DNA of 64,000 bases from Mytilus galloprovincialis (GCF_965363235.1 NC_134841.1:74589723-74653722), one strand, 5' to 3'. Positions 4,030 to 64,000 are shown, counted from the stretch's first letter. Notes: a model not told the origin generated them from the sequence alone. Numbers and translations are program-made.

Positions 4030-4724
4030 TCTCAACAAACTTCCCAGATTAACAACACATTTGGTACTTCTCGGCATATTTCTACGGCAATGTTCCGAAC
4101 CAGACCTAGCTCATTTTAAAAGATATTGACCTGGACTACTCCTTCCTTAAATATTTTTTTGTGATCCGGGCACCTCGGCCATAGTAAGGATTCAAAGTTG
4201 TGTTTTAACGAACTTTTCATTTCAACCACACAATCGGTACTTTTCGGCATCTACCTACGGCAAAGTTCCGAACCGGACCTAGCTCATTTTAAAGGTATTA
4301 ACCCAAGCTATTCCCCACTTAAATATTTTTCTGGGATCCGGGCCCGTCTGGCCACCACAGAGGTTCAAAGTTGCCAATTTACGTATTTTCCATATCAACC
4401 ACACATTCGGTACTCCTCGACATATCCCTACGGCAAAGTTCCGAACCGGACCTAGCTCATTTCAAAGGTATTGATCCAAGCTATTTGCCAGTCAAATATT
4501 TTTCTGGAATCCGGGCCCGTCTGGCCACCACAGAGGTTCAAAGGTGCCCCTTAACGTAATTTTCCGTATTAACCATATGCATACATTCGGTACTTTTCGG
4601 CATATACCAACGGCAAAGTTCCGAACCGGACCTAGCTCATTTTAAAGGTATTGACCCAAGCTATTCCCCACTTAAATATTTTTCTGGGATCCGGGCCCGT
4701 CTGGCCACCACAGAGGTTCAAAGT
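4030..4724 (+). repeat. Short array (~4 monomers) of the ~175-bp satellite; distal monomers diverged, proximal ones near-identical to the big arrays
   Basis: Repeating cggcaaagttccgaaccggacctagctcatttyaaaggtattgaYccaagctattYcc...ttttctgggatccgggcccgtctggccaccacagaggttcaaag. Overlapping ORFs 4198-4455 and 4371-4559 translate to the same peptides as the ORFs in the large arrays. Confidence 0.85.
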
Positions 4725-5355: not shown

Positions 5356-6214
5356 ACAAAATCAAGATATTTTAAAATAGGTGTTCAAACACCCAGTTCA
5401 TTGTTAGATATTAACTTCAAAATCATGATTTCCATCGTAAGAAAAGAAAGAACAATATTATTTACCCGATAAATACAATACATTTGTATTAACCAATTAT
5501 ATATATATATGTTACAGGCATTTTCTAAATTTAGGCCTAATATTGACAGGCATTATACAAAATGACTAAAAATACCTAGTCATTTTGTAAAATGACTAAA
5601 ATTTTGAGACAAAATTCAACAAATTGCCTGTTCAGTTTCAGGCAATTTGTAGAAGAATGATATCGTTGAGATGCATATAACAAAAGTGGACAAAAACAAA
5701 ATATCTTGCTAAGAAAATAACTAATGGTTCGATATAATGAATTTATTCTCCAAAAACCTGCTGGGAAGATTTATATGTCATATATGATGTTTTCTTTTTA
5801 GTAAAACTACGTTAAGTATGCACTGGCTCTGTATTTCAGATAGTAGATAGTTTTTGGTGTGGTTCGTGTTGCTTCTTCATCGAGTTTTATGTTGTGTCAT
5901 GTGTACTATTGTTTGTCTGTTTGTCTTTTTCAGTTTTAGCCATGGCGTTGTCAGTTTATTTTCAATTTGTGATTTTGACTGTCCCTCTGGTATCTTTCGT
6001 CTCTCTTTTTCACTAAAAACTGGGATTAAATTTTTTGAGCCATAGACTTAAACTAAAGACAAAAACAGTTTGTCAATAGTCTAGGCTCACGTCAATTAAA
6101 GTAAGAGGGAAATTACAGCTGCGTATAGACAGGTACGGGTCCAGGATGTGAAAAACGTTCTACGGGCAATCCACTGTGGAGATTGATACAGCAACTTGTA
6201 ATAAAAGAATCCGA

Positions 6215-9662: not shown

Positions 9663-11506
9663 CTAACAGCGTCCGTACAATATAGGTCCACTAGCATTCG
9701 CAACTATAATTTTTTCATTCTTTACATCAAACTCGAGTCCAAAAGGATTATTAATTCCGTAATCTTTCCCAAGCAGCTTTCTTGCGTGTTTTCCATCCGA
9801 CGACAGTACAATTATACCATTGTTACCAGAAGAAGCCAGAGGCGGATTTAGGGGGGGGCAGGGGGCCCGGGCCCCCCTTTTTGGGAAAAAATGTGGTTGC
9901 TTATATAGGGAATCACTGAAGCGTGACTGGAGCGGGCCCCCTCTTAGGTCAGTCAGTGGGCCCCCACTTATGAAAATTTCTGGATCCGCCACTGGAAGCA
10001 ATATACACGTTTGAGTCTTTATCTATAGATATCCCTCGCGGACAAAGAACTGATTGATCTTTGTATTCCCACATCTTCTCTCCAGTCAATGAGCAGCATG
10101 TAACTGTATGGTGTAAGCTATTGGTATAAAATATCTTGTCTTTAGATGTTGTTATAAAACTCCAGTTTGTCAAGGTTTCGTCTTTAACCAAGGTAGAAGA
10201 GCAATTATCCAACACATTTACCTTCTGTATACCCAAGCCAGAATTACAGTATAATAAGTGGCCATCTCTGTAACATATACCGAAACAGTAACTGGTTGTC
10301 TTTATCGTGCTTTCAATTGAAATTTGTTAAAATGTTGATGATTGGAATTTGATTGGAAAATTGAAATGTAACAGCAACCGTCTTGTCATCGATACAAGTA
10401 ACATCTAATGGGTAGGAGCTTGACAATGATATGTAATTCTTTAAGGTTCCATCTTTGTTTAAGATCAGAAGACGTTGTTGTTTGTAGCCTAACAGAAAGA
10501 TATCTCCCGTACTAGAAAAAGAACACCCTCTGACACCAGTAAAGTTTTCCAATGTCATGTTGATATCATTAATATTGGTAGTTGTAGGTGATGCATGATG
10601 AATAGTTATAATCTGTGCTTGTTTGTCATTCTCAGTCTGCAAAACCACCAACGGAGAACTCGATTCAACAGATATTGAACAAAATGAAGTTACAGTAGAC
10701 AATACGTCGGATAGCTTGTCCTCAATGTTATAGTTCAAGTCTATCTTCTGTGAACTACCATCCTCAAATAATGACTGCATTAATATTTCATGTTTCTTAA
10801 TTTCTGTTTCAATCATTTTACTCCCAAGAAATGCCTGTAGGTCTGACGCATATTCTTTGACAGCTGACATATTAGTTTGCAATATATCAATATTTTCCGT
10901 ATGTTTAGCAAGTTTTCTCAGTAAATCTTCTATTTGTGCTTTAACTTTCTCTTCTGCAGAATATAAATCCTGATGTATTAGTTGTTCTAACCCGTCAAGG
11001 TGCGCGTTAATTTTATTATGAACCTTTTTTATTTCATCGCAAATTTTCTGCCTTTGATTCTGGATTTCTTCAAGATTTTGTTTCCGATCTTTTACAACTT
11101 TCTCGGCATTTATTTTGATATATTTCAGATTTTCATCAAGACTCTTCAATAAGACTGAAGTCTTTGCCGTTTGTATGACATTCTCCAGCGACAATATCCC
11201 AACACATTCAGCATGGTTGGACTGAATACACAGTGGACAACCGATACTTTCATGTTGCGGACAATACATCTGAAATTTTCTGTCATGCTGTGAACAGTAT
11301 GGTGATATTTTTGCTATTGAGGGAGGTAATTGTTTATAGTTGTCGACAGATATAACATCATGGTTACGTGAGGCTTTCGATGCATTCTGATACTGCAGAC
11401 ATTGAGATCAGAGTCCTTCGTCACATTCAGGGCACCAGTAGTCAGCATTTGTTGTCGTGTGCTGAGACTCACAAATACCACACGAAACTGTGCTCGATGA
11501 TGCCAT
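9663..11506 (-). pseudogene. TRIM-like (B-box1, B-box2, coiled-coil, NHL repeats; no RING) gene carrying three lesions; likely pseudogene
   Basis: Minus-strand frame from ATG at 11506: MASSSTVSCGICESQHTTTNADYWCPECDEGL[TGA]SQCLQYQNASKASRNHDVISVDNYKQLPPSIAKISPYCSQHDRKFQMYCPQHESIGCPLCIQSNHAEC... is B-box1 then B-box2. A long coiled-coil follows (ORF 10313-11269), then NHL-like repeats (..GICYRDGHLLYCNSGLGIQKVNV.., ..GISIDKDSNVYIASSG.., ..NNGIIVLSSDGKHARKLLGKDYGINNPFGLEFDVKNEKIIVANASGPILYGRC*). Lesions: (1) in-frame TGA at 11408-11410 where a B-box zinc-ligand Cys is expected. (2) A 1-nt frameshift near 10313-10326. (3) The MITE at 9836-9995. Confidence 0.6.
9836..9995 (+). mobile_element. MITE insertion (copy B, 160 bp) inside the NHL-repeat coding region of the TRIM-like gene; 3-bp target-site duplication AAG
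   Basis: Element ccagaggcggatttagggggg...cagtcagtgggcccccacttatgaaaatttctggatccgccactgg. It is flanked by aag at 9833-9835 and 9996-9998. Element plus one TSD is 163 nt (3n+1). Removing it fuses the upstream and downstream NHL reading frames exactly (..NVYIASSG|NNGIIVLSSDGK..). Confidence 0.65.
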
Positions 11507-19100: not shown

Positions 19101-22100
19101 GGAATAGCTTGGGTCAATACCTTTAAAATGAGCTAGGTCCGGTTCGGAACTTTGCCGTTGGTATATGCCGAAAAGTACCGAATGTATGCATATGGTTAAT
19201 ACGGAAAATTACGTTATGGGGCACCTTTGAACCTCTGTGGTGGCCAGACGGGCCCGGATCCCAGAAACATATTTAAGTGGCAAATAGCTTGGATCAATAC
19301 CTTTGAAATGAGCTAGGTCCGGTTCGGAACTTTGCCGTAGGGATATGTCGAGGAGTACCGAATGTGTGGTTGATATGGAAAATACGTAAATGGGCATTTT
19401 GAAGCTCTGTGGTGGCCAGACGGGCCCGGATCCCAGAAAAATATTTAAGTGGCAAATAGCTTGGATCAATACCTTTGAAATGAGCTAGGTCCGGTTCGGA
19501 ACTTTGCCGTAGGGATATGTCGAGGAGTACCGAATGTGTGGTTGATATGGAAAATACGTAAATTGGCAACTTTGAACCTCTGTGGTGGCCAGACGGGCCC
19601 GGATCCCAGAAAAATATTTAAGTGGGGAATAGCTTGGGTCAATACCTTTAAAATGAGCTAGGTCCGGTTCGGAACTTTGCCGTTGGTATATGCCGAAAAG
19701 TACCGAATGTATGCATATGGTTAATACGGAAAATTACGTTATGGGGCACCTTTGAACCTCTGTGGTGGCCAGACGGGCCCGGATCCCAGAAACATATTTA
19801 AGTGGCAAATAGCTTGGATCAATACCTTTGAAATGAGCTAGGTCCGGTTCGGAACTTTGCCGTAGGGATATGTCGAGGAGTACCGAATGTGTGGTTGATA
19901 TGGAAAATACGTAAATGGGCATTTTGAAGCTCTGTGGTGGCCAGACGGGCCCGGATCCCAGAAAAATATTTAAGTGGCAAATAGCTTGGATCAATACCTT
20001 TGAAATGAGCTAGGTCCGGTTCGGAACTTTGCCGTAGGGATATGTCGAGGAGTACCGAATGTGTGGTTGATATGGAAAATACGTAAATTGGCAACTTTGA
20101 ACCTCTGTGGTGGCCAGACGGGCCCGGATCCCAGAAAAATATTTAAGTGGGGAATAGCTTGGGTCAATACCTTTAAAATGAGCTAGGTCCGGTTCGGAAC
20201 TTTGCCGTTGGTATATGCCGAAAAGTACCGAATGTATGCATATAGTTAATACGGAAAATTACGTTATGGGGCACCTTTGAACCTCTGTGGTGGCCAGACG
20301 GGCCCGGATCCCAGAAACATATTTAAGTGGCAAATAGCTTGGATCAATACCTTTGAAATGAGCTAGGTCCGGTTCGGAACTTTGCCGTAGGGATATGTCG
20401 AGGAGTACCGAATGTGTGGTTGATATGGAAAATACGTAAATGGGCATTTTGAAGCTCTGTGGTGGCCAGACGGGCCCGGATCCCAGAAAAATATTTAAGT
20501 GGCAAATAGCTTGGATCAATACCTTTGAAATGAGCTAGGTCCGGTTCGGAACTTTGCCGTAGGGATATGTCGAGGAGTACCGAATGTGTGGTTGATATGG
20601 AAAATACGTAAATTGGCAACTTTGAACCTCTGTGGTGGCCAGACGGGCCCGGATCCCAGAAAAATATTTAAGTGGGGAATAGCTTGGGTCAATACCTTTA
20701 AAATGAGCTAGGTCCGGTTCGGAACTTTGCCGTTGGTATATGCCGAAAAGTACCGAATGTATGCATATGGTTAATACGGAAAATTACGTTATGGGGCACC
20801 TTTGAACCTCTGTGGTGGCCAGACGGGCCCGGATCCCAGAAACATATTTAAGTGGCAAATAGCTTGGATCAATACCTTTGAAATGAGCTAGGTCCGGTTC
20901 GGAACTTTGCCGTAGGGATATGTCGAGGAGTACCGAATGTGTGGTTGATATGGAAAATACGTAAATGGGCATTTTGAAGCTCTGTGGTGGCCAGACGGGC
21001 CCGGATCCCAGAAAAATATTTAAGTGGCAAATAGCTTGGATCAATACCTTTGAAATGAGCTAGGTCCGGTTCGGAACTTTGCCGTAGGGATATGTCGAGG
21101 AGTACCGAATGTGTGGTTGATATGGAAAATACGTAAATTGGCAACTTTGAACCTCTGTGGTGGCCAGACGGGCCCGGATCCCAGAAAAATATTTAAGTGG
21201 GGAATAGCTTGGGTCAATACCTTTAAAATGAGCTAGGTCCGGTTCGGAACTTTGCCGTTGGTATATGCCGAAAAGTACCGAATGTATGCATATGGTTAAT
21301 ACGGAAAATTACGTTATGGGGCACCTTTGAACCTCTGTGGTGGCCAGACGGGCCCGGATCCCAGAAACATATTTAAGTGGCAAATAGCTTGGATCAATAC
21401 CTTTGAAATGAGCTAGGTCCGGTTCGGAACTTTGCCGTAGGGATATGTCGAGGAGTACCGAATGTGTGGTTGATATGGAAAATACGTAAATGGGCATTTT
21501 GAAGCTCTGTGGTGGCCAGACGGGCCCGGATCCCAGAAAAATATTTAAGTGGCAAATAGCTTGGATCAATACCTTTGAAATGAGCTAGGTCCGGTTCGGA
21601 ACTTTGCCGTAGGGATATGTCGAGGAGTACCGAATGTGTGGTTGATATGGAAAATACGTAAATTGGCAACTTTGAACCTCTGTGGTGGCCAGACGGGCCC
21701 GGATCCCAGAAAAATATTTAAGTGGGGAATAGCTTGGGTCAATACCTTTAAAATGAGCTAGGTCCGGTTCGGAACTTTGCCGTTGGTATATGCCGAAAAG
21801 TACCGAATGTATGCATATGGTTAATACGGAAAATTACGTTATGGGGCACCTTTGAACCTCTGTGGTGGCCAGACGGGCCCGGATCCCAGAAACATATTTA
21901 AGTGGCAAATAGCTTGGATCAATACCTTTGAAATGAGCTAGGTCCGGTTCGGAACTTTGCCGTAGGGATATGTCGAGGAGTACCGAATGTGTGGTTGATA
22001 TGGAAAATACGTAAATGGGCATTTTGAAGCTCTGTGGTGGCCAGACGGGCCCGGATCCCAGAAAAATATTTAAGTGGCAAATAGCTTGGATCAATACCTT

Positions 22101-52249: not shown

Positions 52250-52480
52250 CATGCATCCATCAACTCTCTACCCTATTTTCATTTTAGCCAAATCACTACT
52301 TTCACTTTCAACAATAAATATTTATGCTCCATTTATGGGCATTATGTTTTCTAGTCTGTGCGTCCGTTCGTTCGTTCGACCGTCCGTCCGTCTGTCTGAC
52401 TTCAGGTTAAACTTTTTGGTCGAGGTAGTTTTTGATGAAGTTGAAGTCCAGTCAACTCGAAGCTTAGTAAATATGTTCCC
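52250..52480 (+). repeat. Repeat with internal (GTCC/GTTC)n microsatellite; inverted partner at 57420-57650
   Basis: 52290-52470 ...gtccgttcgttcgttcgaccgtccgtccgtctgtctgacttcaggttaaactttttggtcgaggtagtttttgatgaagttgaagtccagtcaactcgaagcttagt... is the reverse complement of 57470-57640 (...gacggacggacgaacgaacg...). The pair brackets ~5 kb. Confidence 0.6.
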
Positions 52481-52837
52481 TATGATATGATCTTTCTTAT
52501 TTTAATGCCAAAGTAGATATTTTACCCCATTTTACGGTCCACTGAATATAGAAAATGATAGTGCCGATGTGGCACCCGTGTGCTATGGACACTAACAGAA
52601 AACAGTAGACAGAACACAGAAAGTCTCTATAAATTATAGTAGTATGATCGTAGTTTACATGTAGATGAACACGAAAAATAATTGTCCTCTCTATGGAGGT
52701 ATAATAGTTGTGGTTCTTGCGATTTAAAAACCATGATATGGAGAACGCTCTGATTGGCGTATTTATTTTTCATTTTTATACGCCCGTCTTTTAGACGGGA
52801 CGTATTTAATATGGTATACCGTTGTCCTTCCGTCCGT

Positions 52838-56482: not shown

Positions 56483-58389
56483 TCAAAATTATAAGACTGA
56501 TGTCTTTGTTGACGTTGCAGGTGCGCTTGACTCCAATCTTAATTAAATAAGATAGTCAAGTTTTCAGACCGAAGGTTGGCGATTCTCTCCGACACTCCGT
56601 CTTCCTCCACTGATAAAACTGACGACCATGAAATAGCACAACTGTGCTGAAAGAAGCATTAAACACCAATCAATCAATCATAGAAATGATAATACTATTA
56701 TTTTTTTATTCATAATTTTTATAACAATAAGAAGCTTTATTTCTTTATTGAATATTTCATTAAAGAGACTTCGTAGGTTCTGGTTTCTAAGACAAATAAA
56801 AAATCTCAAATCATCATACAGTTTGCCTCAGGTTGAACTGTGACAAATTTGTTACACCCACACCCAGATAACACTTCCAATATCTGGTGTGGTGTTGAGA
56901 GAGCTGTAGCCATTGAAAATCAAGCACTGTTCAGTTTTAAAGACAAATGCTGTACAATCGGTTCCATGATGTAGACATAAGTAAGCACAGTAAATCCTTG
57001 TTCTGGAATACTCGGTTAGATAAGGAAGAGTAGTTGGGATGGAATCTGTCTTGTCAATATGAAAATACCTCGAACCTGTTAAATATTAAAAATACCATAT
57101 ATAGGTGGATAATGTAGTAAATATTTCTATCGGAAAACAACTGTAGTTCATACAAAATATAAACTCTCTTCACAAATGTTTTTTTTTCTTTCTATGTATT
57201 CCCCTTCTTTATTAAACTTATAGTGAACATAAAAATAATTAATCATCTAAAAATATTCTAAATATATTCTATAGTGACTATTAATTATATAAACCAATAA
57301 TTTAACAAATTCAAAAGGAAAAGATGCAAAATAAAACATATAACAACAAGAATGTGTCCCCAGTACACGAATGCCCCACTCGCACTATCATTTTCTATGT
57401 TCAGTGGACCGTGAAATTGGGGTAAAATCTCTAATTTGGCATTAAAATTAAAAAGATCATATCATAGGGAACATGTATACTAAGTTTGAAGTCGATTGGA
57501 CTTCAACTTCATCAAAAACTACCTTGACCAAAAACTTTAACCTGAAGCGGGACAGACGGACGGACGAACGAACGAACGAACGAACGAACGGACGGACGGA
57601 CGGACAGACGACCGACCGAACGAACGGACACACAGACCAGAAAACATAATGCCCCTCTACTATCGTAGGTGGGGCATAAAAATATCCACAATCTTGTTGA
57701 CTCCTTGTTTTGTCATCTCTTTATTTTTTCCTCCGGTGGAATGTTAAGGTTGTATGTTATTTTACTTACTGTTTGTACCCCCAACATGCCATTGGCCAAT
57801 ATTTCCCGTCGGTGTGCTTACTCCTGCTGTTAAACCTTCAACTATATCTTGGGATATGGGATAATGGTTCGCCGTTGGATCTATTTTAAGTAATTATATG
57901 TTTTATTATATGTGATGTATTATAATCGGATAGATATGATGAGAAAGGGTTAATTTTAATGAAGCAGTAGTCTTAACTAAATGGTTAAAACAATTTTTAT
58001 TTATCCCAACACACGGCCCCCACACTCACCTATATTCTTGCCTCCACAAAATGATCATATTACAAAGTTATCTAGTGTAGATTCTCGTTTTTCACATTTA
58101 TGGTAAAATGAGGAAACCCCATACATATTCGTACAAAAAAAGCACCCACACTCAAACATGAGAATATCAGTTTCATTGTTAATTTAGCTTTATCCATATG
58201 TAAACATAGAATATTCTCGCTTCTAAAATATTCAAAATTGAAACACTCGATAAGGTCGACGAAGGTTTTATCTACACACAAAAAAATCATATTTGTGACA
58301 ATAAGTACAGCTATACTATATTTATATTTTTTCTTTAAATTTCTTTTTTGAAACCATCATTTTGATATATCAAGAAAAAACATACATAC

Positions 58390-58598
58390 ATTGACAAAGA
58401 AATAGACTGGTTTCCGTCGCTGCTCTATTATCCCAATCAAAGCTTTTAGTGTAAACAAGTTTAACACGTTGGTTTATAGCATATGATGTAGGTTCTCCAT
58501 AAATCCATGCAGCTTCCGTTAGATCTGTTCCATCATTCCATTTGAATGAAATTCCATCTGCTGACGTCAGTCCAATCCAGAAATCGTTATTAACATTC
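58390..58598 (-). CDS. Multi-CTLD gene, exon e (C-terminal half of CTLD-C)
   Basis: Acceptor tgttacag|G at 58599/58598. Encodes (M)NVNNDFWIGLTSADGISFKWNDGTDLTEAAWIYGEPTSYAINQRVKLVYTKSFDWDNRAATETSLFLCQ then t|GTATGT donor. WIGL, W.W.DG and GEP signatures are present. Confidence 0.6.
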
Positions 58599-59890
58599 CT
58601 GTAACATATATAGAAATCGTTATTGTTGTCCCTGTAACATATTTAGAAATCGTTATTATTGTCCCTGTAACATTTTTAGAAATCGTTATTATTGTTCCTG
58701 TAATATATTTAGAAATTGTTAGGAATGTCCCTGTAACATGTTTAGAAATCGTTATTATTGTCCCTGTAACATATATAGAAATCGTTATTATTGTCCCTGC
58801 AACATATTTAGAAATCGTTATTATTGTCCCTGTAACATATTTAGAAATTGTTATTATTGTCCCTGTAACATATTTAGAAATCGTTATTATTTTCCCTTTA
58901 ACATATTTAGAAATCGTTATTATCGTCCCTGCAACTTATTTAGAAATCGTTATAATTGTCCCTGTAGCATATTCAGAAATCGTTATTATTGTCCCTGCAA
59001 CATATTTAGAAATCGTTATTATTGTCCCTGTAACATACTTAGAAATCGTTAGTATTGTCCCTGTAAAATATTTAGAAATCGTTATTATTGTCCCTGCAAC
59101 ATATTTAGAAATCGTTATTATTGTCCCTGTAACATATTTAGAAATCGTTATTATTGTCTCTGCAACATATTTAGAAATCGTTATTATTATCCCTGTAACA
59201 TACTTAGAAATCGTTATTATTGTCCCTGTAACATACTAAGAAATAGTTAGTATTGTCCCTGTTAAATATTTAGAAATCGTTATTATTGTCCCTGCAACAT
59301 ATTTAGAAATCGTTATTATTGTCCCTGTAACATACTTAGAAATCGTTATTATTGTCCCTGTAACATACTTAGAAATCGTTAGTAATGTCCCTGTCAAATA
59401 TTTAGAAATCGTTATTATTGTCCCTGCAACATATTTAGAAATCGTTAGTATTGTCCCTGTAACATATTTAGAAATCGTTGTTATTGTCCCTGCAACATAT
59501 TTAGAAATTTTTATTATTGTCCCTGTAACATATTTAGAAATCGTTACTATTGTCCTTGTAACATATTTAGAATCGTTATTATTGTCCCTGTAACATATTT
59601 AGAAATCGTTAAAATTGTCCTTGTAACATATTTAGAAATCGTTATTATTTTCCCTGTAACATATTTAGAATCATTATTATTGACCCTGTAACATATTTAG
59701 AAATCGTTATTATTGTCACTGTAACATATTTAGAAATCGTTATAATTGTCCATGTAACATATTCATAAATCGTTATTATTGTCCCTGTAACATATTTAGA
59801 AATCGTTATTATTGTCCCTGAAACATACTTAGAAATCGTTATTATTGTTCCTGAAACATACTTAGAAATCGTTATTATTGTTCCTGTAAC
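58581..59890. repeat. 33-bp minisatellite, ~40 copies, inside the intron between CTLD exons d and e; the unit is derived from the splice-acceptor and exon-start of exon e
   Basis: Plus-strand unit gaaatcgttattattgtccctgtaacatatttag. Minus-strand unit ..atgttacagGGACAATAATAACGATTTC.. matches the true junction atgttacag|GAATGTTAATAACGATTTCTGG. ORF 58738-59052 (NRYYCPCNIFR repeats) is just its translation. Confidence 0.85.
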
Positions 59891-60669
59891 ATATTTTCAA
59901 AGACCATTTCAACTGGCAAGCACTAAAAAGATAATCGTTATATAAAAAATAACCAGATTTGGTAGTCTTCTCGAAGTGCGAATTGAGTAATTTTAAATGA
60001 TTTCCGTTCAATTCCATTGTCACATCAGTAAATATCAGAAAGAAGAAGTGGTATAATTGTCAATGAGACAACTCTCCACAAGAGTCCAAATGACACAGAA
60101 ATTGGCAGCCCATAACGCACCTATAGTCAGATATAAATTTAAAAGGCCCCAAAATCACAAATGTAAAACAACTCAAATGGGAAAAATAGCCTGATTTATG
60201 TTCAAAAAATGAACGAAAAACAAATATTTTTATGTAACACAGCAACAAACCACAACTACTGAATTACAGGTTCCTGACTTGGGAGCAAGTACACAAGGAT
60301 TTAAGAATAGCAAGTAGAATTAGTTAGTCCAGTTACCCAGTTACTTATGTATATACTGAACAGTAGAATTAGTGATTATTTCTGCACTGAGGCAAAGAAG
60401 CAGCATATTGTCTCGAATATCATAATGTAAGGAGTGTATGCGTGCAATTTTTAAAAGTGTTTCGAAAGGATTTCCCCTTGGTAAGGAGTGTTTACTTACA
60501 ATTAAAGTGTAGAAATGGGAGAGAAATAATTGTTCTAATTCCCTTTGAGATATAATAAATTTTAGAAGAACAGTTTCGACATGTTTAAAAAAAAACCAGA
60601 TTAGCTTCTGTTACATTATCAAGTGTATCTAAAAAGGTAGATTCTGATTTCAGTATTTCTATTACTTAC

Positions 60670-60808
60670 ATTCCCTGGTAGACAATAGCATTCTTGGCAA
60701 CTGTAAACATTTCATTTGTGGGTAGCATGGCCAGCTCTAAGGCATTCATTTCACAATCCTGTTTAGCAGTTTGATAATCAACGGAGTAACTCATCGGCAT
60801 ATAATTAT
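60670..60808 (-). CDS. Multi-CTLD gene, exon d (N-terminal half of CTLD-C)
   Basis: Acceptor tctcttgtttctgaatgtag|AT. Encodes NYMPMSYSVDYQTAKQDCEMNALELAMLPTNEMFTVAKNAIVYQG then at|GTAAGT donor at 60669. Y..A...C and LA...S..E..F pattern. Confidence 0.5.
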
Positions 60809-61827
60809 CTACATTCAGAAACAAGAGACTTTGGTAAGAAACTCAATGAAACAATATACAGACAATGCATTATACTTTGTAAAGCAGTAGGACAAGACTC
60901 TTGATTAATTTGCACACACGTTGACGGATTCCTTTCAAGAATTCAAAGTATATAACACCTTGGTGTGCGTACTCTGTGGTTAAGGCAACATGTAACAACT
61001 ATGCATTTTTATATACATGTATTCAAATTAAAAAAAAAGTTTCTAGAAGGATATAAACAAATCGAATATTATATTAAAATTTCCCGGAATACATACATGT
61101 ATAAGCTTAATAATATTTTGACTTTGTGGAAAATTGAGAATATAAAAATATAACAGGCTACATGTATTTACAAACCGTTGAGTCTTATGATTATTTACTT
61201 TTTAATATTGACAATTCTAAAACATTCAAATATTAAAACGTGCATTATATTTAAATAAATAAGAACAAAACATTACCGTTCTTGTCCATTCGTTTTTGAT
61301 GCGTTTTGTTATTTGATTTTGCCTAGTGTGAATATGGATTTTCAGATTCGATTTTCCTCTAAGTTCAGTATTTTTGTGATTTTACATTTTACACGTAATT
61401 AATTTCATACTATTTCACTTTTGATTCGAATGTATGAGAATTAAATTTCCGCATAAGTTTTTTGAGTATTTGAACAGATCAATTTGAAATACCATTTGAT
61501 TTGTATGGGGGGCTAGGATGAAAAATTTTGTCCTGCATTTTTTTTAGTTGTTATCTCTGTCCTGCCTTTTTATTTTTCACTCTTTTCGGTCCTGTATTGT
61601 TTTCTTAGTTTATCCTGACCTTTTTTTATATAAATTGTCATCCTGCCTTTTTTTTTCAAATTTGCTCACCCTGCCTTTTTTTCTTTAACTTAAAACTGCC
61701 ATTTTCAAATTTCATTCTAGCCATCCCCGCCCCGATAAAATAAAATGGTATCTGTCTTTAAAAAGCTCAAAATTCTACAACAGCATGTATAATGACTGAA
61801 GTTCATCTTAAACCTGTAACAACTTAC

Positions 61828-62039
61828 ATTGACATAACGCGTGGGGCAGTCTGGTAGATTTAGTTTTTGACACCCATGTACCATCGACCTTGTCCACCGC
61901 TATAGAGACGTTTGCAACCGGATTGGGAACAGTGTGACCTGGTTTCCAGTCTGTATAAACCACACTTTCTAACATGTTTTGCCAGGTTAGATATGCTCCA
62001 TTGCCATATAAACCTATCCATATGTCACCAGTCAGAGTT
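61828..62039 (-). CDS. Multi-CTLD gene, exon c (C-terminal half of CTLD-B)
   Basis: Acceptor gtgttag|A. Encodes (E)TLTGDIWIGLYGNGAYLTWQNMLESVVYTDWKPGHTVPNPVANVSIAVDKVDGTWVSKTKSTRLPHALCQ then t|GTAAGT donor (61827-61822). Overlaps ORF 61808-62056. Confidence 0.6.
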
Positions 62040-62780
62040 CTAACACAAACAAACATAGTTTACTTATACATTGCATGTTAATCTAGTTTCAGTGCCACCC
62101 CAAGCATAATATGCTTAAAACTTTCACAATGATTATTTGAGGAAATTCATATAACTGTTTCATATCTCATGTGGCACAGAGAAACTTTTTATTGTCTGAT
62201 GCAAAATCTATTTAAATAAACTTATATAATATACAAAAGCCAATTTTGTGTCTTATATTCGTTTTTTTAATTAATTTCTCGTGACGCACCACTTCAAATA
62301 CTATCAATCTTTTGATAAATAAAACAAAAATAAAATAAAAATGCAAATTCAACTGAAGAGCGTCTAAGAATTTTCAATCCATAAATATAATATCTTAGCT
62401 GTATTCCGCTTAACTTTTCAAAAATGTTGGCCCTCAATGCTCTTCGTACTTTATTTGAACTTTTGATTTATTATTCTAGCAGGCACTGCATGATGAATCT
62501 TTTTCAACGAAAATGCGCGTCTTTAGTACAAAATTATAAGCCAGGGTCCGAAGCTACCAAAAGACATGTCATAAGATATATCTTAGGACATATCTAATGA
62601 TTCTCTTATGACTATCCTAGGACATATATCAGACCTCGCCTCGAAGCTGTCTTAGAATGATCTTAGCAAAGACATTCTAAAACTGCTGCAAGTTCTTTAA
62701 ATTTTCAAATATTAACATGGATTTATGGAAAAAAATCATGTGAATGTAGTGTTGACTGATCTTAACTTGAAAATACATAC

Positions 62781-62925
62781 TCATAAGTTATGAAATCTTT
62801 TAAAAACGTAACGGCAACTGGGTTAGAAAACACCGCTAATTGTCCACCTAAGTTAATACATTCCTGTGAGGCTTCGTAATAGTTGTAATCTCCATGGATA
62901 AATGTCACGTCTGGATGAGGAGGTG
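62781..62925 (-). CDS. Multi-CTLD gene, exon b (N-terminal half of CTLD-B)
   Basis: Acceptor gttttgcag|CA. Encodes PPHPDVTFIHGDYNYYEASQECINLGGQLAVFSNPVAVTFLKDFITY then ga|GTATGT donor. Phase joins exon c exactly (..ITY-E-TLTGDIWIGL..). Confidence 0.55.
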
Positions 62926-63262
62926 CTGCAAAACAACAGTATACAAGTAGAATATAGATAGGGTGACTAGATGACGGAATCCTTTAATCGACAATATGCT
63001 TAAAAATTCTCAAAGAAAATAGTCGAGCGGATCTGGTTATCAAAATGATTATTAATAGTTTTATCAATTTGTAATGGAATTTAAATTTGAATGACATATA
63101 GTGTAACAAGACTGTATCCACTTTCAAATATAAATGAAAATTTTACACAAAACTGAACACTAAAACATAATTGTGAAAGAAAAAAGTTACATGAAAAAAT
63201 ATCTAAAAAATGGAATTTTGAAACATGTACGTTTCTACTAAACATATATACAGTGATATGCA

Positions 63263-63460
63263 CCATAACATAGAGGGCGGTTAAGTTCCGTGTAGGCGCC
63301 CGTATTCCACAATACATAAGCATAGGCCTGGCTAAACTTTCCAAATTCCAATTGTGGTTCAAGGGCTGCCCATGAATCATAGTCCAATGTTTTGCCATCA
63401 TCCCAATAACAAAGTTGGTTTGTACAAGATACAGACATCCATACATCATCGACAATGCCC
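63263..63460 (-). CDS. Multi-CTLD gene, exon a (C-terminal half of CTLD-A; the N-terminal half presumably lies beyond 64000)
   Basis: Acceptor ttttttttaacag|G. Encodes GIVDDVWMSVSCTNQLCYWDDGKTLDYDSWAALEPQLEFGKFSQAYAYVLWNTGAYTELNRPLCY then g|GTGCAT donor. Overlaps ORF 63238-63489. Coordinates may be off by 1 (see summary). Confidence 0.5.
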
Positions 63461-64000
63461 CTGTTAAAAAAAATACATATACGTATCAATATAACTATAC
63501 CAAAGATATGTTAACAGATTAGAACTTTTTTTTATACATTTATGTTTATGTTTAAATTGTTCAGCGAATATTGTCGATACTTAGAATGCAATAACTGCGA
63601 CTATTTTGTATTTTACCAGTTGTAGGTAATAACAGTGGCGGATTCCTGTCTTGAGTAGTGAGTAGACGGCTGGGCGTTCACCTCTATTTTAGACGGCTAA
63701 TGCTTGTAAATATCTTGTTAAGATTTAAATGATTTTAGCACATAATAGTTCAATAAAATGGCGACTCACTCCGCATGGCACTATTTTTTTAAAAATAATT
63801 TTGACCAAAGAGCAGCCGGACAATGAGTATTTAGTTCGAATTGGGGATACGAATTTGACAGCTAATGTCCCAATAAATGTGTACATTATATTTTCAAAAC
63901 TAATTACAAATCATGTAAACTCGTACAAATGGAAAATGGAAAAATCGTTTTTATACGTTTTGATTATATTCGTGTGAAAATAACACAAATCGCTGGGTTA

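Follow-up and report, generated by a model that had tools for sequence, protein, structure and literature searches.

The stretch of Mytilus galloprovincialis DNA analysed here (GCF_965363235.1 NC_134841.1:74589723-74653722; 64,000 nucleotides, hereafter the window) carries on its minus strand seven exons of a gene for a protein with three C-type-lectin-like domains (CTLDs). We believe, with a probability of roughly 85%, that this is a nine-exon gene encoding a 477-residue secreted protein, composed of a signal peptide, three CTLDs that have all lost the disulfide between their second and third canonical cysteines (C2-C3), a linker and a PAN-like C-terminus, and that the protein is a non-classical binder. 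An earlier reading of the DNA, made from the sequence without database searches, had proposed a chain of five exons; by comparison with related sequences these five are exons 3-7 of the nine, with exons 8 and 9 at 57880-56852 and exons 1 and 2 past position 64000. The seven exons within the window, named A to G in the order of transcription, are as follows.

63264 to 63460, minus strand: exon A, 197 nt, phase 2 in and phase 1 out; C-terminal half of CTLD1 (VWMSV...LCY), with AG and GT signals, in frame and identical to XP_076101033.1
62781 to 62925, minus strand: exon B, 145 nt, phase 1 in and phase 2 out; N-terminal half of CTLD2 (YYEASQEC...LAVFS)
61828 to 62039, minus strand: exon C, 212 nt; C-terminal half of CTLD2 (WIGLYGNG...ALCQ), with S or V in the C2 column and K in the C3 column
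60670 to 60808, minus strand: exon D, 139 nt, phase 1 in and phase 2 out; N-terminal half of CTLD3 (YQTAKQDC...)
58390 to 58598, minus strand: exon E, 209 nt; C-terminal half of CTLD3 (FWIGL...GEPT...WDN...FLCQ), with C2 replaced by V and C3 by A
57770 to 57880, minus strand: exon F, phase 1-1; 37-residue linker (YPTANHYPISQDIVEG...), outside the range of the earlier reading
56852 to 57075, minus strand: exon G, the last coding exon; four-cysteine PAN/apple-like domain and a TAA stop at 56852

The chain of exons A to E as first proposed, five minus-strand exons with good splice signals and donor phases of 1, 2, 1, 2 and 1, agrees with our analysis in coordinates, signals and phases. All junctions of exons A-E have an AG acceptor and a GT donor, the spliced product is 300 codons long without a stop, and the frame runs on through exons F and G to the TAA, the intron phases over the seven exons being 2-A-1-B-2-C-1-D-2-E-1-F-1-G. 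In each of the three CTLDs the internal phase-2 intron interrupts a codon that lies exactly seven residues ahead of the WIGL or WMSV Trp, and the inter-domain phase-1 intron splits a codon two residues past the last cysteine (C4). Phase-1 introns thus flank each pair of N-half and C-half exons, as the sequence-only reading had claimed. The domain motifs that it listed hold in part: WIGL and others are present, but CTLD1 ends in LCY rather than LCQ and has WMSV, and CTLD2 has W.W.NM and WKPGH. When the search was extended beyond the five exons, exons F and G were found below 58390, down to the stop. The M. edulis locus (L001), ~94% identical to the window in DNA with introns included, served as the reference for placing two 5' coding exons, those for the signal peptide and the N-terminal half of CTLD1, about 100 bp and more past position 64000.

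The translation of the seven exons (411 residues) is identical at 411/411 positions to residues 67-477 of RefSeq XP_076101033.1, a 477-residue M. galloprovincialis protein named 'lymphocyte antigen 75-like' and a member of the 90% cluster of the M. edulis homolog. The first homology search had found a 477-residue M. edulis protein of the same name, 97% identical over the full query and with the same junctions. The exon chain is therefore already a RefSeq model, and the gene is predicted in RefSeq for M. galloprovincialis, M. edulis and M. trossulus. Pfam Lectin_C (PF00059) matches the five-exon product at 57.9 bits (E 1.9e-15; cut-off 22.6 bits), which bears out the claim of a multi-domain C-type-lectin-like gene. 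The single domains CTLD1, CTLD2 and CTLD3 score 22.8, 30.5 and 30.6 bits, all at or above the 22.6-bit gathering score, exon A giving its match when joined to the off-window N-terminal half, for which that of M. edulis was used. The open 300-codon frame, the Lectin_C scores and the 100% identity to RefSeq together place the gene far beyond chance. A long array of CTLDs is rejected, as tblastn of the spliced five-exon product revealed no CTLD exons in the window besides these. The gene has exactly three CTLDs, followed by the linker and the PAN-like domain. A literature search on lymphocyte antigen 75 in Mytilus found no paper on the gene.

Older and automatic models of the gene (CAG2243796.1, VDI40539.1 and XP_052101581.1) are mutually inconsistent. 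One has an additional residue where exon E begins, next to the repeat (DVLNNDF), and one omits part of exon C. Of the nine exons, which are all present in the M. californianus locus (L002), the model of that species, XP_052101581.1, spans just the last four.

At the level of transcripts, support is found in a congener: two M. coruscus RNA contigs of ~1.3 kb (L004 and L005), taken from Logan (SRR13891816 and SRR13891787), contain a contiguous open reading frame (ORF) of 338 codons. L004 agrees at 99-100% with the genome of M. coruscus. Aligned to the window, it breaks up into successive blocks whose ends fall at the boundaries of exons B, C, D, E, F and G, that of B exactly at 62781, and the splice junctions of exons B-G are thereby supported by spliced RNA. 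The 5' end of this transcript (L004 9-122) maps to L007 12274-12387 of M. coruscus, inside the intron upstream of exon B; the ORF of the contig starts with MEFIHGD. The transcript may have an alternative first exon, with a product lacking CTLD1, or may be incomplete or partly unspliced.

The cysteine pairs C1-C4 and C2-C3 are the most conserved residues of CTLDs, and C2-C3 ties the long-loop region (PMC9965136). In our protein, C4 is present in all three domains and C1 in CTLD2 and CTLD3, the C1 of CTLD1 lying in the off-window exon, where it is seen in XP_076101033.1. The C2-C3 pair is gone from all three. Aligned with the human mannose receptor, CTLD3 has V for C2 and A for C3; aligned with tetranectin, CTLD2 has S and K; aligned with DEC-205, CTLD1 has A at C2, a position at which the hidden Markov model (HMM) alignment and the comparison with the paralog instead place F, with Y at C3. 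To set these replacements in the context of the family, 921 CTLD instances from the 150 best representatives of the full HMMER search were aligned, with a seed alignment and an iterated HMM alignment, both of which agree with the pairwise alignments on the replacement of C2 and C3. The claims that every domain keeps C1 and C4 and lacks C2-C3, the columns of which hold F/Y, S/K and V/A, and that this is atypical, were thus both right: 733 of the 921 instances have all four cysteines, and C1 and C4 only are found in 36 complete domains (~4.6% of ~780 complete). A single member of the C2-C3 pair was lost in only eight domains, which indicates that C2 and C3 are normally lost together.

There are precedents, however. 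Full-length domains with C1 and C4 only occur sporadically in sea-urchin MRC1-like proteins, and eight of the 36 belong to one nematode protein, KAK0427242.1 of Steinernema hermaphroditum. These proteins are from unrelated lineages (25-29% identity), and mostly one or two of their 10-14 domains are affected, as opposed to three of three here. The absence of C2-C3 is a departure within the CTLD family; membership by Pfam and by fold stands. CTLD1 also carries an extra CxxxxC pair (SVSCTNQLC), which is kept in the orthologs and the paralog. In CTLD2, the C2 position lies inside an N-V-S glycosylation sequon (ANVSIAV; window 61912-61926, exon C) that is kept in all Mytilus orthologs; the paralog is without it (GVAVVM).

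The calcium-site motifs have changed as well. The five classical ligands of Ca2+ site 2 are supplied by EPN or QPD, by WND and by a Glu two residues before C2. CTLD1 has EPQ...WNT, CTLD2 has KPG..VPN...WVS and CTLD3 has EPT, Q and WDN, and the signature of EPN or QPD together with WND is found in none of the three domains. Canonical long-loop carbohydrate-recognition domains (CRDs), such as those of mannose receptor CTLD4, tetranectin and DC-SIGN, resemble the domains described here in Pfam family, predicted fold, WIGL motif, C1-C4 disulfide and the topology of two helices and a beta-sheet. In contrast, they have the C2-C3 disulfide at the base of the long loop and the EPN/QPD and WND motifs, both of which are missing from our three CTLDs.

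Despite the missing disulfide, the predicted fold is that of a CTLD. An AlphaFold2 model was made of the M. edulis ortholog (97% identical) from a 46-row alignment, rather than of the product of the window, and its three CTLD cores have a predicted local distance difference test score (pLDDT) of ~85-97. Searched against the PDB with Foldseek, the model matches multi-CTLD fragments of the mannose receptor, PLA2R, DEC-205 and Endo180, and single CRDs at template-modelling (TM) scores of 0.7-0.8 and root-mean-square deviations of 2.2-3 A. A reading of the domains as compact Link-like CTLDs was rejected, the domains being full length with a long-loop region.

Orthologs are XP_071171077.1 in M. edulis (97% identity), XP_063431556.1 in M. 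trossulus (91%) and the partial model XP_052101581.1 in M. californianus (~81%), all with the same exon junctions. Only four representatives in the HMMER search had E values below 1e-30, all of them from Mytilus, and by this measure the family is narrow and found so far only in that genus. A paralog, XP_071148757.1, named 'macrophage mannose receptor 1-like' and grouped with M. coruscus CAC5368022.1, lies on another M. edulis chromosome and is 40% identical; it has the same exon split points and the same architecture of three CTLDs, linker and PAN-like C-terminus, its linker being longer and a Thr/Pro-rich repeat. In the M. edulis paralog locus, a C1q-domain gene is annotated on the opposite strand within an intron of the paralogous gene (L003 12163-13954).

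The cysteine pattern of the paralog is -CCC / CxxC / CCCC, that is, C2-C3 in CTLD1 and CTLD3 and none in CTLD2, and it has EPN in CTLD3. We infer that the loss of the disulfide in CTLD2 predates the gene duplication. Since the paralog keeps C2-C3 in CTLD1 and CTLD3, the losses in those two domains would have come after the duplication, in our gene only, where the EPN/WND motif appears to have decayed too. The loss in CTLD1 was presumably stepwise because the M. californianus ortholog retains an orphan C2 (QFEC) with C3 absent, a likely intermediate. As for the domains themselves, they are ~23% identical to each other, which indicates that their tandem duplication is old; from this identity and the identical intron positions, we infer that a two-exon unit of phase 1-1 was duplicated in tandem long ago to give all three. 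Phase 1-1 symmetry is an established norm for extracellular modules, and the domain units here, like those of the paralog, are flanked by phase-1 introns; a literature search on this symmetry in C-type lectins yielded no statement of direct use. A CRD split over several exons has been documented for CLEC4f (PMC6422238). As both features are known, the exon architecture is ordinary.

The RefSeq name implies a true endocytic receptor of the mannose receptor/DEC-205 (LY75) family, and indeed the best PDB matches in sequence and fold are CTLDs of MRC1, LY75, PLA2R and Endo180. Members of that family (MRC1, LY75/DEC-205, PLA2R and Endo180) have an N-terminal ricin-type cysteine-rich domain, an FNII domain, 8-10 CTLDs, a transmembrane segment and a cytoplasmic tail. 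Our protein has three CTLDs only, with no more than 14-19% identity to those of the family. A Pfam scan of the full-length M. edulis ortholog found only Lectin_C, with weak PAN_1 and Xlink, and no ricin-type or FNII domain; no hydrophobic segment was found downstream of the signal peptide in the full-length protein, which ends in ...GSVIWVWV. Since the ricin-type and FNII domains and a hydrophobic segment are all absent, we predict a secreted protein of three CTLDs and a PAN-like domain rather than a member of the DEC-205/mannose receptor family. Membership is hardly credible and is refuted on architecture. XP_076101033.1 and its orthologs are the same gene as ours, automatically predicted, and the receptor family after which they are named does not include this protein.

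It could also be argued that the gene is a duplicate in the course of decay into a pseudogene, with a frame that merely happens to be still open. Residues among the most conserved of the family are gone, older annotations of the locus are fragmentary, and the ratio of nonsynonymous to synonymous substitution rates (dN/dS) is elevated, at 0.43-0.53 in the comparison with M. californianus and as much as 0.6-1.3 in the C-terminal half of CTLD1, the one part of the gene where it comes near 1 or passes it. However, the overall dN/dS is below 1 (0.25 against M. edulis), and the frame and every AG and GT site are kept in M. edulis and M. californianus, the M. trossulus model being full length at 478 residues. 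C1, C4, WIGL and the extra cysteine pair of CTLD1 are conserved, and the M. coruscus gene is transcribed and correctly spliced. A pseudogene is thus very unlikely and was rejected on the conserved frame and the spliced RNA; judged from these sequence comparisons, the gene is not decaying.

The most economical reading of the protein is as a soluble, secreted, multivalent binding protein. Its CTLDs would have lost the classical sugar site with Ca2+ and EPN, together with the disulfide by which the long loop is stiffened, in favour of Ca2+-independent or non-carbohydrate ligands, which would probably be recognised by a more flexible long-loop region. Against this stands the view that the protein is a classical Ca2+-dependent, carbohydrate-binding pattern-recognition lectin, in which the loss of C2-C3 has no functional effect. 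The CTLD fold is predicted to include the long-loop region, CTLD3 retains an E-P-x and W-D-N triplet with oxygen-bearing side chains, and bivalve C-type lectins are generally viewed as mucosal immune receptors and employ numerous motifs other than EPN (PMC10140915, PMC12842671). Yet the full signature is found in 0/3 domains, and CTLD3 of the paralog keeps both C2-C3 and EPN, so that disulfide and motif were lost together. The classical lectin is, in our view, unlikely, although it deserves to be taken seriously. Bivalve C-type lectins are massively expanded and expressed in mucosal tissues (PMC10140915); by analogy with that generality, the gene may have a role in immunity or self-recognition.

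Several observations weigh against the non-classical, secreted binder that we favour. All five ligand positions of CTLD3 are still oxygen-bearing (E, T, Q, D and N), so that Ca2+ may still bind there, and the apparent loss of classical sugar binding is read from motifs only. The long-loop segments, at pLDDT 60-77, are the least confident of the CTLD parts of the model, a point that counts against the classical lectin too. The C-terminal 107 residues have pLDDT below 50, their fold being poorly predicted, and the matches of the exon G domain to PAN_2, PAN_4, PAN_1 and PAN_3 are all sub-threshold (best E 4e-4). A five-sequence profile of this C-terminal domain matches the PAN-type N domain of HGF at E 0.0025 and aligns three of the four cysteines; the module may be PAN/apple-like. 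The dN/dS of the C-terminal half of CTLD1 suggests relaxed constraint. Finally, an exact look-up of XP_076101033.1 in the contig index returned no M. galloprovincialis transcript contig, and the RNA support for the exon chain is that of M. coruscus, for exons B-G.

Overall, we regard this as an ordinary lineage-restricted CTLD gene, uncharacterised in the literature searched. Its importance is mostly one of annotation: the name 'lymphocyte antigen 75-like' is misleading for a secreted protein of three CTLDs and a PAN-like domain, and the exon reading made from sequence proved accurate. The paralog pair offers a natural comparison, one copy keeping the long-loop disulfide and EPN and the other having lost the cysteine pairs of CTLD1 and CTLD3, and could serve as a small model of how CTLDs shift from Ca2+-dependent lectins to other modes of binding.

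The intron between exons D and E contains a minisatellite that reaches into exon E.

58579 to 59896, no strand assigned: minisatellite, 33 bp x 40, intron D/E

The last unit of the array is the real acceptor with the first 20 nt of exon E, and each unit consists of the ancestral form of those 20 nt (G GAC AAT AAT AAC GAT TTC T, with TAA next in frame) plus 13 nt ending in the acceptor TTACAG, so that the consensus encodes DNNNDF, then the in-frame TAA, then TATGTTACAG. Exon E still starts with DNNNDF in M. trossulus and has DNNKDF in M. californianus. The array was compared among four Mytilus species, the stored contig of the M. coruscus locus (L007) being without exons D-G: there are 40 copies in M. 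galloprovincialis, 22 in M. edulis and ~13 in M. trossulus, and the array is absent in M. californianus. In M. galloprovincialis at least 24 units out of ~40 keep the AG, and in M. edulis 13 of 22 do; most M. trossulus units have ACAT, not ACAG. Many units contain a branch-point-like TAATAAC or TACTAAC, and six a donor-like GTATGT. That the array acts as a set of decoy 3' splice sites, with a copy number varying between species, would fit these sequence features and is quite unlikely. If its acceptors were used, transcripts would be diverted to premature-stop isoforms that are degraded or encode only two CTLDs, and the array would tune the output of the third CTLD according to repeat number. 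In M. californianus, a different tandem array of 35 bp x 9 lies directly upstream of exon D (L002 9651-9964), made up of intron sequence of which the window has a single copy (~60815-60880). From the two arrays it follows that repeats have expanded beside acceptor sites twice in this gene.

Other repeats lie in the introns and elsewhere in the window. A dispersed repeat of ~250-340 bp with an internal tetranucleotide run occurs at 57345-57683, in the intron between exons F and G, where the run is (GGAC)n at 57550-57629, and again at 52337-52592; further copies lie in the M. edulis locus at L001 ~443-557, 4091-4340, 5702-5993 and 19839-20095. This repeat is probably a mobile element of the short, non-autonomous kind. 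At 61612-61682, in the intron between exons C and D, there is an A-rich tandem motif of 28-30 bp (AAAAAGGCAGGA...), which is expanded into several arrays at the matching place in M. trossulus (L006 7697-8042). The longest ORF elsewhere in the window, at 10313-11269 on the minus strand, encodes 318 residues, the N-terminus being rich in Cys and His (CPQHESIGCPLCIQSNHAEC) and the long stretch after it resembling a coiled coil. Its Pfam matches are sub-threshold and of coiled-coil type only (Apolipoprotein and Stathmin), and by eye it looks like a candidate B-box/coiled-coil (TRIM-like) exon.

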